IMG/VR virus record: IMGVR_UViG_3300010376_000094
Coordinates: 1-33,319 of that record
Direction: 5' to 3' (one strand)
Length of the DNA: 33,319 bases
Source: a virus
Taxonomy: Duplodnaviria; Caudoviricetes
Of the stretch, positions 10,518 to 31,490 are shown one piece after another. Every line of letters begins with the position of its first letter. Within the stretch, counting starts at the first letter, position 1. Below the pieces are notes generated by a model that was given only the letters and a program-made list of their open reading frames with translations, made no database searches and had not been told where the DNA came from. The translations under genes and the position numbers were made by a program.

Positions 10518-10975
10518 CAGGGACCTACGTGGATATTGCCGGAGGAGAGCCAGGGCTGGCCGCCGCCGGGGTTGGTGGTCGGCAGCCCGGAGAGATCAAG
10601 CGATGCCCAGTGTGTGGCCGTGTCGCCGGCCTGCCGGGCCGTGGTCTCAGTGTTCAGCGCGTTCTGCAGGTTGGTGTCCGCATTCGTCCGCGCGGTCGTC
10701 TCCGCGGCGAGCTGCGCGGACTGGCTGGCATCGGCGCGCACCCGTGCTGTTGTCTCGTCGGCGAGATCCTGCGCCTGCGAGGCGTCGGCGGCCTGCCGCA
10801 GCGCGCTCTCGGTTGCCAGATCCAGCGGCGGCCCGAGTGCGGCCCCCGTGCGGTCGAACAGCAGTATGAAGAACCGGCGCCATTCCGGGTTGACCTCGCC
10901 GCTCTGCGGATCGACCAGCGGCGACGATGGCACCGCGGCGCGGAAAGGACGGGTGGTGGTGGTTGTGACGCTCAG
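10517..10975 (-). CDS. Coiled-coil tail needle-like protein (P22 gp26-like position)
   Basis: PLVDP..G.VNPEWRRFF N-terminus then repeated ETTAR..AD units; start inferred at CTG 10975 (alternative GTG 10933). Confidence 0.65.
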   Translation of the reverse strand: MSVTTTTTRPFRAAVPSSPLVDPQSGEVNPEWRRFFILLFDRTGAALGPPLDLATESALRQAADASQAQDLADETTARVRADASQSAQLAAETTARTNADTNLQNALNTETTARQAGDTATHWASLDLSGLPTTNPGGGQPWLSSGNIHVGP

Positions 10976-11652
10976 AGGAGTTTTCCTAGTTGCCTAGCCC
11001 ACACGAGAGGGTCTTTTGCCCATTTCCGATGATTGCAATCGGCACACGTAAGCTGGATGTTTGTGATCCAGTTCGATCCGCCGCGGCTGAGTGGAACTAT
11101 GTGATCCACGTGGTAGCCGATTTTAAGAGACGCACCGCAGTATGCGCATCTCGTCTTTTGCTGCTTGAGCAAGGCTCTAATCTCAGCACCGCTGTGATGG
11201 CCTTCTGCGCCTTTTTGCCGCGCGACCCGCCGCCTGCTGTTGGCCAGAACATGCTCAGGATTTGCGTCGGCCCAGCTTTTGTAGCTGGCTTTAAACTTCT
11301 CAGGATCGGCCTTCCGTTCAGCGGCCTTCTGTATCGCCCTAGCCTCTCGGTTGCGGTCATACCAAGCCTTGAACCAAGCCTTCTTTTTCTCTGGGTTAGC
11401 TGCGTCATAGGCTTGTCCATATGCGCGGCGCTCTTCTCTGTTGGCCCAATAGTATGACTTTGAGTAGGCCCTGGCAGTTTCACGGTGCTTGGGACGATCC
11501 GCAACTTTGTGCAGTTGCTGGCATTCGGCACACTGCCCGGTGCTGACATATCGCTCCGATATGTGTCCTCGTTTACAGGGCTCTCCGGTGAAATACCGAG
11601 TGGCACCGGCTTGCCTAGCCTCCTCACGAGAGACATGCTTTCGGTCAGCCAT
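10972..11652 (-). CDS. Free-standing HNH homing endonuclease
   Basis: RYFTGEPCKRGH..ERYVSTGQCAEC N-domain; CAYC...HVDHIVPLSRGGSNWITNIQLTCADCNHRK HNH motif; lower GC than flanks. Confidence 0.92.
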   Translation of the reverse strand: MADRKHVSREEARQAGATRYFTGEPCKRGHISERYVSTGQCAECQQLHKVADRPKHRETARAYSKSYYWANREERRAYGQAYDAANPEKKKAWFKAWYDRNREARAIQKAAERKADPEKFKASYKSWADANPEHVLANSRRRVARQKGAEGHHSGAEIRALLKQQKTRCAYCGASLKIGYHVDHIVPLSRGGSNWITNIQLTCADCNHRKWAKDPLVWARQLGKLL

Positions 11653-11653
11653 T

Positions 11654-11716
11654 GCGAATGCTCCCAACGTTCGCTGTGGTCAGGAGCGGCGTGGTGCGCA
11701 AACACCGCGCCGCTCC
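11654..11716 (-). promoter_or_regulatory. Two hairpins in the HNH leader, one occluding the RBS
   Basis: GGAGCGGCG...CGCCGCTCC inverted repeat (11683-11716); GCGAA-CGTT-GGG-AGCA-TTCGC (11654-11674) contains GGGAG and ends 1 nt before the ATG. Confidence 0.6.
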
Positions 11717-19118: not shown

Positions 19119-19531
19119 CAGGCTGACAGCACGCCGAACCAGGCGCCCTGGAGCGGCGAGAACAGCATCATCGACTTGCCCGCCGCCAGCGCGATGCCGG
19201 TGCCCGCCGCCACCCCGTTGATAGTGTCGCTGCCGGCGGCATTGGCGAACAGCTGTGACGATGCCGCGCCACCGTTGGTGACCAGCAGCGTCTGGCCGCC
19301 CATGGCCGGAGGCAACATGCAGCTATCGGCGGTCGTAGCGCAGACCGCGATGAGGGTTTGTTGCGTCGTGATCGGCGTCGCGGCGGCCCGCGTGCCACCG
19401 GCGTGCGCGGTGATCGAGGCCGCGGTCCATCCGTTGCCGTTCAGAATGCCCGTGAGGTCATGCATCCCTGTGCCAAGGTTGTATTGGATGGTGCGGCCTG
19501 ACGGGTAGGTCGTGGTCGGATACTGCGCCAT
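19118..19531 (-). CDS. Putative capsid decoration protein
   Basis: 137 aa small-residue beta-rich ORF directly after the capsid gene; GAGGAGG RBS. Confidence 0.6.
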   Translation of the reverse strand: MAQYPTTTYPSGRTIQYNLGTGMHDLTGILNGNGWTAASITAHAGGTRAAATPITTQQTLIAVCATTADSCMLPPAMGGQTLLVTNGGAASSQLFANAAGSDTINGVAAGTGIALAAGKSMMLFSPLQGAWFGVLSA

Positions 19532-19541
19532 GGCACCCTCC

Positions 19542-20693
19542 TCAGTTCGCCATCAGGCGACAGGCCAACTGCGGACGTATGGCCTGGTATCCATACAAAA
19601 TGTCCAGACGGCAGGGCAGCACATCGTTGTTGATGTCATATTGCCGCACGACGCGAATGCTGAGCCCGTCCTTCTGTGCCCTCGCTGCCATGTCGACCCC
19701 GCCCGGCATCACCAAGTCCGCCGTCGCGAAGGTGAATGCATCCGGGTGATAGGCGATGCTGCTACCCGTTGCGGTGCTGGCAGTGCCGGAGAAGGTCAGT
19801 GCGTTGCCCGAGGTCGGCGAGGCGTTGACGTTCTGGTAGGCGCCCGTTGCGGTAATCGCGGGTGCGATCTGCATATTGCCCGCGCCGCCCGCGTAGTTGG
19901 CGGTCAGCACGAACTGCTGCAGCCGGCCGGTGTTGACCTTGGTCTCGGGATGCACGGCGGTGCAGCCGGCAATCGTAAACACATCGCCCGCGTTGCCCGC
20001 GCCGGTGCCGGTGGTGACAGCGAGTGTGCTGCCTGTCTGCCCGCCAGCGCCTACCTGATAGTTTGCCTCGGCGCCGCGCGTGTAGGTCGTGAGGAACGTG
20101 TTCTCGGCCCACTCGAAGCCAGCAGCGAGGCCCATTACGCCATCCACATACTGCCGTGCGATCTGCGTTGACTGCTGGAACAACCCCTTGAGGCTGTCGA
20201 CCATGTCGACATTATCCTGGGTGTTAATTCGCAGCTGCCACTGCTGCGTCTGCGGCGTGAGGTTGTCGAGTAGTGCTTTGCGGGCCAGCAGCACGTTGCG
20301 GAAGGTCTGTGCGACACCCGCGGTGCCAACGAGGTTCCAGACGCTGTTGACCATGGTGAGCGCGTCGGCCTCGACGTTGGCGGCAAGCACGGCGCACGCA
20401 GGCTCCAGGTATCTGGCACTGAAGTCATCGATGTTCAGCGTCAGTTCCTGGGAGCTGAAGCTGAAGTCGACGTGCTTCTGATTGGCGATCGTCAGCGTGG
20501 TGTTGGTTTCCACCGTGTTCTGGATGGCAAGCGTTGGTGTGCTGGCCACGGTGAACTGCACCGGGAGGCGGATGCGGATCGTTGATCCGATCTTGGCGCC
20601 GGAGACGGCGAAGCTGTCGTCATATTGTCTGTTGATGCTGCCGACGAAGTTAAGGCGCTGATGCAATATGGCCAGCGCCTTAGCGGTGATCAT
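19542..20693 (-). CDS. Major capsid protein, exon 2 (P22 coat-like)
   Basis: MITAKALAILHQRLNFVGSINRQYDDSFAVSGAKIGSTIRIRLP...QKHVDFSFSSQELTLNIDDFSARYLEPA...CRLDILYG. Confidence 0.93.
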   Translation of the reverse strand: MITAKALAILHQRLNFVGSINRQYDDSFAVSGAKIGSTIRIRLPVQFTVASTPTLAIQNTVETNTTLTIANQKHVDFSFSSQELTLNIDDFSARYLEPACAVLAANVEADALTMVNSVWNLVGTAGVAQTFRNVLLARKALLDNLTPQTQQWQLRINTQDNVDMVDSLKGLFQQSTQIARQYVDGVMGLAAGFEWAENTFLTTYTRGAEANYQVGAGGQTGSTLAVTTGTGAGNAGDVFTIAGCTAVHPETKVNTGRLQQFVLTANYAGGAGNMQIAPAITATGAYQNVNASPTSGNALTFSGTASTATGSSIAYHPDAFTFATADLVMPGGVDMAARAQKDGLSIRVVRQYDINNDVLPCRLDILYGYQAIRPQLACRLMAN

Positions 20694-20934
20694 CCATGTG
20701 TTCGGTCGCGCTCGCTAGGCGCGGCCCGCTTGCGGCTGCAAGCTGCTGCATATTCCTATGCAGAGCAGACTATCTCATCATCCGTTTGCACGGAGCCGGG
20801 CGCTTCGGGCCGCTTGGCCCTACTGGCTTGCGCCATAGTCGTTACACCTTCTCCCGTTGCGGGGAGCTTGGCTCGGTATTGTCCGTTCTGGAGGTTCACC
20901 GAATTCACCCGGTTTTACATCAACCCGATCAAAA
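20694..20934 (-). ncRNA. Group I intron (ORF-less, 241 nt, IA-like) in the major capsid gene
   Basis: 5' exon ends in U paired to G in P1 (ACAUCAAU/GUUGAUGU); terminal G; P3 CCGGGUG/CGCCCGG; P4 UUCGGU/ACCGAG; P7 GACUA/UAGUC; P/Q/R/S-like core; removal restores the reading frame. Confidence 0.92.
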
Positions 20935-20970
20935 ATTGATGTTGAGGAGTGTGTTGGTCGCGGTCGCCAC
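20935..20970 (-). CDS. Major capsid protein, exon 1 (MATATNTLLNIN)
   Basis: AAGGA RBS then GTG; 12 codons that join in frame to MITAKAL, giving the usual NTLL-I-MIT coat N-terminus. Confidence 0.88.
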
Positions 20971-21023
20971 CTGTGGTTGTCCTTATTACAGGACGTGACC
21001 ACTGGTTGTTCTCATCTCAGCTT

Positions 21024-21083
21024 TGGCTTTTCATCAGTCCCGACGACGCATCTGCTGCGCCGCCGGGTGCTGATGAGAAGCCA
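21024..21083 (-). other. 60-nt imperfect hairpin in the capsid leader
   Basis: TGGCTTCTCATCAGCACCCGGCGGCGCA-GCAGA-TGCGTCGTCGGGACTGATGAAAAGCCA. Confidence 0.6.
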
Positions 21084-21215
21084 GTAGGCACGTGATTACG
21101 AAAAGACTGATTGCCGGGCGTTTAGAGGGTCTCCGGCGAGGACCACGCGCGGTTGTTTCAGCTGTTCCGCGATCCAGCGCGCAGTTGGTTTACGTCGTCC
21201 TGCGATCGACGGAGC

Positions 21216-21350
21216 CTATTTCTTGCGCTGGCTCTCGCGCTTCTTCGAGAGGGCTATAGCCACCGCCTGCTTTTGCGGACGGCCAGCCTCGACCTCTCTC
21301 CGAATGTTAGAGGACACCACCTTGGGCGACGTCCCGCGTTTCAGTGGCAT
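21216..21350 (-). CDS. Small basic phage protein (44 aa, not in the ORF track)
   Basis: MPLKRGTSPKVVSSNIRREVEAGRPQKQAVAIALSKKRESQRKK resembles a common head-region MPLKKG...QAVAIAL family; TGATG overlap. Confidence 0.8.
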   Translation of the reverse strand: MPLKRGTSPKVVSSNIRREVEAGRPQKQAVAIALSKKRESQRKK

Positions 21351-21556
21351 CAGCGCTTGCCGTTCTTGCCCAGCACCAGCGCGTCCGTCGCTCTGCCCGT
21401 CGGCATGCTCTTAGACGAGCCGGTATCCCCGCTGGGTGCCTTGTAGGTATCCAGCGCGCCGAGGCGCGAGCGAAACGCCCTCTCGTGCGACTGCATGGCC
21501 CTGTCGCTGCCGGTTGTCGTGCCGGTATCGCAGTGGGGCGGTGCCTTGCCTGCCAT
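21350..21556 (-). CDS. Hypothetical protein
   Basis: 68 aa; GGGA upstream; coupled to the downstream gene. Confidence 0.6.
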   Translation of the reverse strand: MAGKAPPHCDTGTTTGSDRAMQSHERAFRSRLGALDTYKAPSGDTGSSKSMPTGRATDALVLGKNGKR

Positions 21557-21560
21557 GATG

Positions 21561-21701
21561 CTATCCCTTTCCTTGCGCGCGCTTCAGCGCGTCCACGTTG
21601 AGCTTCTCGGGCGTCGGCAGTGGCCGCACCTGGTCGACCTCGGCCACCGTCTTGGCGGTGCTGGGCTTCGGTGCGTCGAAGTTGATGCGTGTCTCGGCCA
21701 T
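21561..21701 (-). CDS. Hypothetical protein (46 aa)
   Basis: GGGAG RBS before MAETRINFDAPK. Confidence 0.55.
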   Translation of the reverse strand: MAETRINFDAPKPSTAKTVAEVDQVRPLPTPEKLNVDALKRAQGKG

Positions 21702-21741
21702 GTCATTACTCCCGTTCGGCGTGCTGCGGCCTGACAGGCCG

Positions 21742-22454
21742 TCAAGCATTGCGCCGCCGCTCCTGCGCCTGCTTCATGTAGTAATCGACCAGCTTGTTCG
21801 GATCGGTCTCGAGATGCGGGTCGTAGCGTGTCTGCGCCCGCCCGCTGACCGGCTTCGGTGGCGCGGGAACCTTGCTGATGTTGCGTGCCGGCTGTGCCTC
21901 CAGTTTGGCGGCATACTGGCCGAGCGCGATCGCCCGTGCCCGCTCGCCGCGCAACGAAGCGATGTGCATCAGCGCATCCGGGTCCTCGTGCAGCGCGCCG
22001 CGATCTTGTGGCCCTCCGGCATCTCCACCAGCAGCGCGGCAATCTGTGCATCGGCCCCCATGCCTTGCAGCTCGTTGCAGCGCTGCGTCCAGTCCGGATA
22101 AGCATCGCGCCCGGCCTGATGGAATGAGTTGATGCGATCCTGCAGACGCCGCTCCTCGGCCCGCCGGTCGGCCTCCTGGTTGATGGCGGCCTCGAGCTGC
22201 GGATCGGGCGGAGGCGCCGGCTGCCCTCCATTGCGCACCTGCGCTTCAAGGGCAGCCAGCCGGGCGGCCATTTGGTCACGCTCACGGGCCGCGGTGCCGA
22301 GTTGTGCCCGCAGCGCGCCGATGCGGCGGTTGAACCGGCTCTCCTCTTCCGGCGGCTTCGGCTCCGGTTGCTCCGGAGCGGATGTTTCCGGCGCCTCTGG
22401 GGCCTCACCAGGGGCCTCGGTCTCTTGCCCCTGTTGTTCTTCTGTCTCGCTCAT
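21742..22454 (-). pseudogene. Scaffolding protein, split by a 1-nt frameshift near 21997
   Basis: Acidic Pro-rich N-terminus and coiled coil; the frame switch at ATCGCGGCGCGCTG gives HKIAA..LHEDPDALMHIASL...ISKVPAPPKPVSG; position between portal and capsid. Confidence 0.75.
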
Positions 22455-22648
22455 CAGTGCCGCTGTGGGGCCTCCTGGCGCGGGTGATGCTGAGCGCGGT
22501 GTTCGGTGACCGCCTCGGCAACCTTCAGCTTCGTCTCATCGACGCGCACATAGCCGTCGCCAACCTCGGTTGCCGGATGCAGTGGCGGCGGGTCGGTATC
22601 AAAGATGTTTGGCAGGATGCCGGGCGGCAGCGGTGGCTTATCAGGCAT
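22454..22648 (-). CDS. Hypothetical protein
   Basis: GAGGTG RBS; coupled to the scaffold gene. Confidence 0.55.
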   Translation of the reverse strand: MPDKPPLPPGILPNIFDTDPPPLHPATEVGDGYVRVDETKLKVAEAVTEHRAQHHPRQEAPQRH

Positions 22649-22651
22649 TGA

Positions 22652-22822
22652 TCACCTCGGGGTTGAGGGTGGCGTGTCGGTAACGCTGAAGTCATCAGGC
22701 GGGGCCTCAAGCGTGCCCACAGTGCCGCGCGTCATGGCGGCGGCGGCTTCCAACTCGAGGATGCGGGCGCGCAGACGCTCGATCTCGGCGAGCGCGTCAG
22801 CCAGCCGCTGATCAGAGTCCAT
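22652..22822 (-). CDS. Hypothetical coiled-coil protein
   Basis: MDSDQRLADALAEIERLRARILELEA. Confidence 0.6.
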   Translation of the reverse strand: MDSDQRLADALAEIERLRARILELEAAAAMTRGTVGTLEAPPDDFSVTDTPPSTPR

Positions 22823-23090
22823 TGTGTCGCTTAGAAGGCCGCCGCCAGCGCGGCTTGCCATTCTTCCCTAATTTGCGGGGCGTGCCGTCGAACCTGTGCC
22901 AACGGTAGAACTCTTTGTCGCGCAACCACCTATTGTGCGCCTCGGCTTCCTCCCGCACCGGATCGGCGATAGACGTAAACCGCACGCCGTATTGCGCCTC
23001 TAGCGCGTCGATTTCATCGCGGATGTATTCCGGCCAAGTGCTCACCTCATCAAACCAAAGGCCGACGAGGCTTGCGTCAGCCAGCCGCTG
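22794..23090. repeat. 17-bp exact direct repeat GCGTCAGCCAGCCGCTG at 22794-22810 and 23074-23090
   Basis: Direct comparison of the two sites. Confidence 0.85.
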
Positions 23091-26794: not shown

Positions 26795-26927
26795 GAAACG
26801 ACGTGATGCCTTAACTGCCGGCCTGCGGTTCTACGACGAGGACCGAGGGCCATGTCCTCGGGGGCACGGTTACGGTCTGTCGGGGGCCTTCGGGCATTCA
26901 GGCGAACCGGAGGCCAAATCGCGCTAG
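26793..26927 (+). pseudogene. Probable truncated HNH-endonuclease N-terminus
   Basis: MKRRDALTAGLRFYDEDRGPCPRGH resembles SREEARQAGATRYFTGEPCKRGH of the HNH at 10972-11652. Confidence 0.45.
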
Positions 26928-27143
26928 CACGCCGCGCAGTTCCTTGAGAGACTTGCGGCCAAAGTTAGGCTGCCGCAGCCACCTCATCTCGGAGAGCGCA
27001 GCAACATCGTTGAGCGTCACGCACGCCATCGCCTCAATGGCATTAATAACACGCACAGAGAGGTCGATCTCGCAGAGATGCCGCAATCGGCTAATGTTGA
27101 GGTCCTGGCTGGGCAGATCAGAGTGGTCCATCCACACAGTCAT
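26898..27143 (-). CDS. Stand-alone RNA polymerase alpha-CTD-like protein
   Basis: LCEIDLSVRVINAI..MACVTLNDVAALSEMRWLRQPNFGRKSLKELRGVLARFGL parallels the RpoA CTD LELSVRSANCL...LLRTPNFGRKSLNEIKEVL. Confidence 0.8.
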   Translation of the reverse strand: MTVWMDHSDLPSQDLNISRLRHLCEIDLSVRVINAIEAMACVTLNDVAALSEMRWLRQPNFGRKSLKELRGVLARFGLRFA

Positions 27144-27866: not shown

Positions 27867-28133
27867 TTAATCCACATCCTGCAGGCTCGCCAGCGGCGGC
27901 AAGGTGACCAGCCCCACCCGCTGCACCTTCTCAGGCTTCTGCCGCGCAAAGTGTCCGTCCTCGCCACGCGGACGACCGATCCGCTGCACCAACCGTAGCC
28001 CCCGCATCTTGCGCGCCACGCTGTCGTGCGTGCGGCCCAGCCGCTCAGCGATCTGCCGCTGCGTCAGACCCTCTGCGTGTAGCTTGCGCAGCAGCGCCTC
28101 AGCGTCCTCAGTCCAGGCGACGCCACTACCCAT
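27867..28133 (-). CDS. GcrA-like N-terminal HTH protein
   Basis: WTEDAEALLRKLHAEGLTQRQIAERLGRTHDSVARKMRGLRL parallels GcrA WTDERVELLKKLWxEGLSASQIAxxLGxxSRNAVIGKVHRLGL; GcrA C-terminal domain absent. Confidence 0.7.
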   Translation of the reverse strand: MGSGVAWTEDAEALLRKLHAEGLTQRQIAERLGRTHDSVARKMRGLRLVQRIGRPRGEDGHFARQKPEKVQRVGLVTLPPLASLQDVD

Positions 28134-28665
28134 CGCGACGCCGCAGCAATGTCAGGCCGATCAGCCCAGTGCCCAGAATGGCCAGCCCACCCGGCTCCGG
28201 CACACTGCCCTGCACGGTGGACGAGAAGCTTCCTGACGCCACACCAGTCGCCTGGTTCACGGACAACTCCAGCCTGCCCAGCGTCGGCGCAAAGCCGGTC
28301 AGCGTCAGCAGCGCGTCGTCGTTCAGGCTAAGATCATTCCCCACCACGGACGGCGGGTCCACTTGGCTGGTAAGACTAACCGTGGCCACAAGGCCGTTGT
28401 TCGTCGCAACGAACAGGTTGGCCAGGTTGGTAAACGGGCTGTATTCCAGTGGCGTGTTCACAGCAACGCAGTTCACGCACGTGCCAAGCGCGGTATACGC
28501 CCCCGTGCCGTTGACCAGACTGGCGTTGGCACTGAAGGTGACGTTGACGCCGTCGAACGTGGCATTGCCGACGATGTTCATCGTGTCGCCGGGACCGATG
28601 GACGGCAGCGCATAAGCAGGCAGCGCCAGCGCACTCAGCGCTGCGGCAATGGCTACAGCTCTCAT
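28126..28665 (-). CDS. PEP-CTERM sorting domain protein
   Basis: Sec signal peptide (MRAVAIAAALSALALPAYA); Thr/Asn/Ser-rich body; C-terminal VPEPGGLAILGTGLIGLTLLRRR; AGGAG RBS. Confidence 0.92.
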   Translation of the reverse strand: MRAVAIAAALSALALPAYALPSIGPGDTMNIVGNATFDGVNVTFSANASLVNGTGAYTALGTCVNCVAVNTPLEYSPFTNLANLFVATNNGLVATVSLTSQVDPPSVVGNDLSLNDDALLTLTGFAPTLGRLELSVNQATGVASGSFSSTVQGSVPEPGGLAILGTGLIGLTLLRRRDG

Positions 28666-30911: not shown

Positions 30912-31490
30912 TCACGCTTCCCGTGCCCTGAGACAATCCACATCCACTGCGACCTCGCGCAGCTGACCGAGCATCATCAGCGAGACGAGGGCCATATCGG
31001 TCCCGACGCTGAGCACCATGGCGTGGTGTCCTTCCATTGGCCCTTTGCGGAGGCTCACAGCGTCGCCTGGGCGCCACGGCGGCTCCTGGGCTGGGGGTAT
31101 AGCCCTCTCGACCTCGGCGGCCTGTAGCGCGCTCACAGCGCCTTCTGGGCATATGCTCGGCCGATCACCCGTCATGAGCAGCTGGAACACGCCTGGGGCG
31201 TATCTGACGGGGTTCCAGGGCCGGCTGAGATCGAGGCGGACGAACAGGTAGCCTGGGAACAGCGGGCCGGTATGCCAGGTGCGGTCGCGCCAGCGGACGG
31301 TGACGAGCGGCAGGTAGGCTTCGAAGCCGCGGCGGTGCAGGTTGGCGTGGGCGAGGCGCTCGGCCTGTGGCTTGGAGGCGACGACGCACCAGGGCGGACG
31401 GCTACCGCTAGGCGCTTGGCAACGAAGTGGAGGCTGTTGCCGCAGCCTTTCCGGCGTATCTACGCACTCACGGATTGTTGCGTCAAGCAT
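30912..31490 (-). CDS. NusG/RfaH-family transcription antiterminator
   Basis: NGN domain WCVVASKPQAE..A..NL.RRGFEAYLP...PLFPGYLFV; KOW domain GDAVSLRKGPMEG. Confidence 0.9.
   Translation of the reverse strand: MLDATIRECVDTPERLRQQPPLRCQAPSGSRPPWCVVASKPQAERLAHANLHRRGFEAYLPLVTVRWRDRTWHTGPLFPGYLFVRLDLSRPWNPVRYAPGVFQLLMTGDRPSICPEGAVSALQAAEVERAIPPAQEPPWRPGDAVSLRKGPMEGHHAMVLSVGTDMALVSLMMLGQLREVAVDVDCLRAREA

Follow-up and report, generated by a model that had tools for sequence, protein, structure and literature searches.

The coat gene locus

The DNA analysed here (the window: 33,319 bases, about 63% G+C) is from an uncultured phage with a P22-like late operon of terminase, portal, presumed scaffold, coat, head-tail adaptor, head closure, tail spike and ejection proteins. 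The coat gene belongs to PF11651 (E 1.4e-31), in agreement with an earlier note on this DNA that had called it P22-like, and the nearby portal gene to the P22-like PF16510 (E 1.2e-162). No sigma-70 promoter-like site was found in 19300-22900. The 5' part of the coat gene is laid out as follows.

20980-20984, minus strand: Shine-Dalgarno AAGGA, 9 nt 5' of the GTG and predicted to pair with 20994-20990 as a small hairpin
20935-20970, minus strand: exon 1, 36 nt, 12 codons with the GTG at 20970, its last base being the U of the U.G pair
20694-20934, minus strand: group I intron, 241 nt, ORF-less and P2-less, with P7.1, P7.2, P9, P9.1 and P9.2 and a terminal G at 20694
20917-20931, minus strand: internal guide, of which 20924-20917 pairs with exon 1 (P1) and the adjoining 5' bases with exon-2 positions 2-6 (P10)
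20931-20929, minus strand: in-frame TGA inside the intron
19542-20693, minus strand: exon 2, 383 codons of the P22-like major capsid protein, ATG first

The ribosome binding site AAGGA, the GTG, the first exon, the 241-nt insert ending in G, the AUG that opens exon 2 and all helices named in the earlier note are present at their coordinates on the minus strand. Unspliced, the coat frame runs from codon 12 into TTT TGA, as that note had it, i.e. it stops two codons into the intron; with the exons joined it is open for 395 aa (12 + 383 codons). The insert was correctly described as ORF-less: it has stops in all three sense frames, its whole length is taken up by RNA fold, and it encodes no endonuclease. 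The ORF finder places the start of the coat gene at the exon-2 ATG, which bears out the expectation that annotation would hide the intron. Taken alone, exon 2 begins its match to phrog_283 at profile position 11 (E 5e-69) and that to PF11651 at position 22, versus position 2 for the Pfam match of an intact intron-less relative. A second intron, or a core-less mini-intron, was considered and rejected, as an nhmmer profile gives a single match across the whole window and the joined protein aligns gap-free to that of the intron-less relative L001.

Elsewhere in the operon, the presumed scaffold gene (22454-21600, minus strand) has an apparent frameshift at about 21999, where a contig from sequencing run X1 is one base longer and where L001 is in frame; it is probably an assembly error. 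The minus strand of the window also carries RNA polymerase alpha-CTD-like, GcrA-like, PEP-CTERM and NusG-like genes (26898-27143, 27867-28133, 28126-28665 and 30912-31490), of which the GcrA-like gene, scoring at the Pfam cut-off, and the PEP-CTERM gene hint at an alphaproteobacterial host.

Fold and class of the ribozyme

The Rfam model RF00028 matches 20944-20746 over its full length with 60.2 bits (gathering score 50; E 4.6e-13), and in a search of the window up to E 1 the only other match was a sub-threshold chance match. The helices, all on the minus strand, are these.

20942-20935/20924-20917, minus strand: P1, with the U.G at the splice junction; P1 region -8.4 kcal/mol
20912-20906/20802-20796, minus strand: P3
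20903-20898/20877-20872, minus strand: P4
20892-20890/20884-20882, minus strand: P5
20866-20862/20855-20851, minus strand: P6a
20840-20836/20772-20768, minus strand: P7, GACUA/UAGUC, the guanosine site with its G-C pair, invariant in 7/7 sequences
20835-20832/20827-20824, minus strand: P7.1
20820-20816/20811-20807, minus strand: P7.2
20794-20790/20785-20781, minus strand: P8
20763-20757/20752-20746, minus strand: P9
20742-20738/20733-20729, minus strand: P9.1
20726-20719/20711-20704, minus strand: P9.2
20768-20840, minus strand: P7 catalytic core, with P7.1, P7.2, the P3 3' strand and P8 between the P7 strands

The U.G pair in P1 and a P10 with exon 2, both proposed earlier, were located, the latter as a duplex of five pairs (-5.6 kcal/mol) between the guide-adjacent bases and exon-2 positions 2-6. 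With only four A's between P1 and P3 there is no room for P2, and the intron is P2-less as had been thought.

When the window's intron is aligned with six related introns from coat genes (P1 left out), 94.2% of 417 cells pair, 33 of the 62 pairs are changed on both sides, and covariation is seen in every helix except the invariant P7. None of 500 shuffles reaches the observed level, a count that is not a probability since the sequences are related and the structure comes from the window alone, and slid controls give 31-45%. Free folding of the region is modest evidence only (z -2.26, with 4 of 200 shuffles equally good), and its minimum free energy fold misses P6a-P7 as drawn, which is expected for a pseudoknotted core, though not supportive.

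The two stems P7.1 and P7.2 between P7 and P3 mark subgroup IA2, that of phage introns of the T4 td type. Both are present and covary, which places the intron in class IA, as the earlier note had argued. P7.1/P7.2 are among the features that define group I classes (PMC3984707), and IA2 is the subgroup traditionally tied to phages and is heterogeneous (PMC11878797). That the 241-nt insert is a group I intron of IA type is confirmed and well supported.

Splice junctions and intron-less alleles

One relative, L001, is an intron-less coat gene 89% identical over 395 residues without a gap, in which AAT is directly followed by ATG ATC and 11 of the 12 exon-1 residues are conserved. Since the exon ends are directly joined in L001, both splice sites are fixed, where the earlier note had placed them. 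Among the G's scanned over 20760-20660, solely that at 20694 yields the L001 sequence; the alternative 3' splice G's that keep the frame (20715, 20709, 20703, 20691 and further on) were rejected, as they give indels against L001.

Homologous loci were compared as the best 80 of 600 confirmed stretches. By blastn and profile search the intron is absent from all 80, and at least 78 read in frame through the segment before MIT, which the earlier note had proposed as a check on its reading and which came out in its favour. A search anchored on exon 1 gave one locus among viral contigs, a chance match, nine among metagenomes (the window's own stretch, L204, L208 and six that are unrelated or chance) and none in genome contigs.

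Two contigs from sequencing runs cover the intron itself. One of 607 nt, from run X1 (possibly the source sample), spans both junctions without a difference. Another of 323 nt, from run X5 of a second study, covers 20674-20931 with 11 differences and continues into a diverged copy of exon 2; of its five listed differences, two together turn a G-C pair of P9.2 into A-U and one repairs a P9.2 mismatch, at a depth (3.8) where sequencing errors are possible. The intron-less joint of the window allele was not found among the DNA contigs of the runs, which can speak for presence only.

Related introns, their sites and endonucleases

A pattern for the core found 122 loci in 10 of the 64 parts of the viral collection, from which about 770 are estimated in total. 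Host genes were read from 100 of 142 flanking stretches, which represent 59 of the 80 loci whose flanks were complete; apparent duplicates and short-frame loci were removed by eye, and the sample is biased by the pattern and not de-replicated. With that proviso the commonest host is the major head gene (11 of 59 loci), followed by tape measure (7), DNA polymerase (6), terminase (4), RNA polymerase (4) and helicase (2).

Near the start of P22-like coat genes such introns are numerous. The closest to the window's, in L136, is 83% identical over 175 nt, sits 46 nt further on, has a P2, and lies in a P22-like coat gene that is directly preceded by a free-standing HNH gene. Searching with a pattern for the 3' junction yielded 33 loci, of which 32 are P22-like coat genes; in 30 of the 33 (the L213-L245 family) the intron is 26 nt downstream of the window's site. 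Where exon 1 of these could be located, 25 of 27 have an ORF of 175-184 aa and two are ORF-less; the one ORF tested is HNH endonuclease-like (E 6e-8). As the ORF of this family is either in P6 or missing, its gain or loss can be read directly. In L204 one intron lies 4 nt upstream of the window's site and a second, with a predicted junction, some 70 nt downstream, and L223 (=L261; 1059-1331) has an ORF-less intron with a U.G pair and a P2 at exactly the window's site. Together L136, L204, L223 and the family at 26 nt thus reveal five intron sites in a stretch of about 75 nt at the start of these genes. All introns seen at the window's own site are ORF-less.

The window has a free-standing endonuclease gene of this kind:

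10972-11667, minus strand: HNH / endonuclease VII-like gene, 3' of the head-closure gene and about 9 kb from the coat gene

No intron core was found around it, there is no endonuclease gene beside the window's coat gene, and none could be tied to the intron site. This gene and the ORFs of the introns 26 nt downstream are candidates only for an endonuclease acting in trans.

Several observations on relatives deserve mention in their own right. Just upstream of the intact coat gene, L002 (2989-3162), L003/L004 (2989-3129) and L019 (2986-3117) have a truncated copy of the coat N-terminus, of about 50 residues, fused behind an unrelated frame. In L276 a group I intron (about 975-1712) interrupts another capsid-like gene and has a 184-codon opposite-strand frame, a putative LAGLIDADG endonuclease by motif. 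In L280 (MW202674.1, 450-720) a P22 coat gene is annotated in GenBank as two genes and a hypothetical; GACTA and TAGTC motifs occur in the gap, which gives no Rfam match at E 0.01.

Sister introns after a G

The subfamily around L236 was examined at 27 of its 28 loci, L264, whose start is missing, being excluded. An intron occupies the window's site in four of the 27 and is absent from 23, including L247, which is 98% identical to L236. In the intron-less alleles the codon before the site ends in G (22) or A (1), never in U, and there is no extra codon. The same-site introns that follow an exon ending in G are listed here.

L236 (=L246, L277), about 195-456: same-site intron, exon 1 ending in G
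L258, about 877-1142: same-site intron, exon 1 ending in G
L260: same-site intron, exon 1 ending in G, identical to L258 over 300 nt
L208, contig end, minus strand: same-site intron, exon 1 ending in G

In each the insert lies between CAG and GTC, from which it follows that exon 1 ends in G. When their 5' ends are folded, the guide takes up four exon bases, of which the last forms a G-C pair, and a loop GAC complements exon 2. RF00028 scores are just above the cut-off for L236 (52.1 bits) and L258 (52.5); L208, at its contig end, had no Rfam match at E 0.01.

J5/4, whose adenosine normally receives the wobble, is AA in 100 of 106 distinct core contexts. The six exceptions are the three distinct G-ending introns, L276, one other intron and a chance match, and a targeted scan for the change returned four loci, the three already known and L276. 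A strict linkage of the change to a G-ending exon was rejected, and the association is not exclusive, because L276 combines the changed J5/4 with a canonical U.G.

Is the window's intron then the canonical U.G member of a natural matched set, whose sisters L236, L258/L260 and L208 splice after G in a Watson-Crick G-C pair with an altered J5/4? We regard this as tentative, at slightly less than an even chance. Against it, in each of the three sisters a U that lies four bases inside the insert is able to pair with G; with the next G as 3' site this alternative U.G would keep the frame and add one codon, an extra codon that is in no intron-less allele. A C-G pair at the 5' splice position is known from fungal mitochondria. 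No published report of a G-C splice pair was found, which is weak evidence as older literature is thinly covered. A separate observation concerns L223, whose exon 1 ends ATC AAT as in the window's clade, an ending that none of the 23 intron-less alleles in its subfamily has; co-conversion of exon sequence is a possible explanation.

Splicing, mobility and the question of a gate

The fold, both junctions, the in-frame stop and the intact intron-less alleles are established. We consider it highly probable that this compact IA-type intron self-splices from late mRNA, and that it is a tolerated mobile element, not a regulator. Self-splicing of the intron RNA is likely, by analogy with established group I chemistry: P1 would dock its U.G pair, free guanosine held in P7 would cut after 20935, and P10 together with the terminal G would align exon 2 before the exons are ligated, joining 12 codons to 383 to give the full 395-residue coat protein. 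Ribosomes on unspliced RNA would halt two codons into the intron and so leave the core free to fold. Arrival at the coat site may have been by homing or recombination with an endonuclease in trans, which would be supplied from elsewhere because the intron encodes none. The scattered distribution, together with relatives that do encode an endonuclease, suggests a mobile element whose own endonuclease was lost or never present.

Could the ribozyme instead gate the coat protein, as the earlier note had it, with a splicing rate that depends on the structured leader, on a metabolite or on ribosomes translating the 12-codon exon, so as to time or limit coat synthesis? A distance of 36 nt separates the intron from the start codon, and the leader in front, with a z of -5.5, is able to pair with the Shine-Dalgarno; by folding and direct reading an alternative long stem would free the latter; a riboswitch-controlled group I intron is moreover described in C. 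difficile (PMC3984707). The leader (21170-20975, minus strand) folds strongly and is conserved before the coat genes of L001-L009 and L014-L020. Its main element is the following.

21024-21083, minus strand: long leader hairpin, z -5.54, with compensatory changes in the intron-less L001, outside the intron

Yet hairpins of this sort are also found upstream of coat genes in the clade that have no intron, and the leader is therefore independent of the intron. Among 21 homologous leaders folded (25 shuffles each), L001, L005, L009, L002, L016 and L019 have z below -3.5, with intron-less L001 at -4.9, L005 at -4.9 and L009 at -4.5, and seven more distant ones range from 0.1 to -2.2. The coat leader often pairs over the Shine-Dalgarno, with or without an intron, and has no Rfam match. 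No aptamer, of the c-di-GMP-II type or any other, was found beside the intron up to E 1 among 4227 Rfam families, and an undescribed aptamer is possible. The intron is missing from all 80 homologous loci, most close relatives being intron-less, and related introns are spread over several sites and many other genes. Interplay of the strongly structured leader with splicing is possible, but nothing supports a regulatory gate for the coat protein, and we judge this role unlikely.

Still less likely is that the intron is inactive or dispensable and that translation starts at the exon-2 AUG, the coat protein being used minus 12 residues. Exon 2 does open with ATG and a 383-aa open frame. Initiation there is nevertheless improbable because the Shine-Dalgarno pairing is weak (-2.2 kcal/mol, versus -5.9 at exon 1) and because the same-site sisters L236, L258, L260 and L208 have at this position GTC, which is not usable as a start; exon 1 is in addition kept at 11 of 12 residues with L001, and the ribozyme core and guide are intact. 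That the intron is a chimeric assembly or a chance fold, for which at least one assembly error nearby (the missing base near 21999) might be cited, is refuted to near certainty by the RF00028 score (E 4.6e-13), by a guide complementary to these very exons, by the separate X1 assembly unchanged over both junctions, by the X5 variant from another study and by the independent same-site intron in L223.

Capsid genes as hosts of group I introns

The host gene had been thought unusual, and this view did not survive: group I introns in capsid genes are already published and common, so that novelty of the capsid host does not hold, and the major head gene accounts for 11 of the 59 loci in our own census. 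In the mycobacteriophage LittleE, RT-PCR together with sequencing of the protein's N-terminus proved that a major capsid intron is spliced (Pope et al. 2013, PMC3706429). Both that intron and the window's interrupt the major capsid gene of a phage rich in G+C, close to the mature N-terminus, behind an exon 1 whose last base is U, and both end in G. They differ in that LittleE's is about 819 bp long, carries an endonuclease gene in antisense orientation and belongs to an actinobacterial siphovirus, whereas the present one is of 241 nt and ORF-less in a P22-like, uncultured phage. The same source describes an ORF-less 265-bp tail-gene intron in BAKA/Optimus and refers to another capsid intron, that of lactococcal phage Tuc2009 (PMC3706429). 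The crAss-like Delta and Zeta phages also have group I introns in their MCP genes (Yutin et al. 2021, PMC7886860); these were recognised by their endonuclease domains, each gene has several, and the large Bacteroidetes phages concerned have another capsid family. In a 2025 paper the apparent preference of phage introns for genes of nucleotide and DNA metabolism is called mysterious (PMC12350094), and the available text of PMC10914365 does not mention capsid introns.

Nor is loss of P2, which had seemed worthy of remark, exceptional, being described for some group I introns (Hausner et al. 2014, PMC3984707) and seen in the inserts of Salmonella phage Vi06 (in DNA polymerase) and Klebsiella phage RCIP0099. 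These run like the window's from P1 straight to P3, have P7.1, P7.2 and P9-P9.2 and are 70-80% identical over the core; they differ in host gene and site, and that of Vi06 has an ORF. Among 230 matching GenBank phage records none covers 80% of the window intron. Collaborative homing, in which an ORF-less intron is paired with a free-standing endonuclease (PMC3984707), resembles the present case in that the window's intron is ORF-less and L136 has its free-standing HNH gene upstream of the coat gene, and differs from it in that the window's coat gene has no endonuclease gene next to it. No published account of introns in P22-like coat genes was found in a literature coverage that is incomplete.

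What the finding means

Phage group I introns commonly reside in virion genes, besides those of DNA metabolism, and the window adds an example. It also illustrates an annotation trap, for gene callers lose the first 12 coat residues. With its 241 nt the intron is an easily assayed ribozyme. If the sisters do splice at a G-C pair, the near-universal U.G rule would be broken, with the window's intron as the control, and one site with two recognition chemistries would be a natural experiment on how a ribozyme chooses its 5' splice site.
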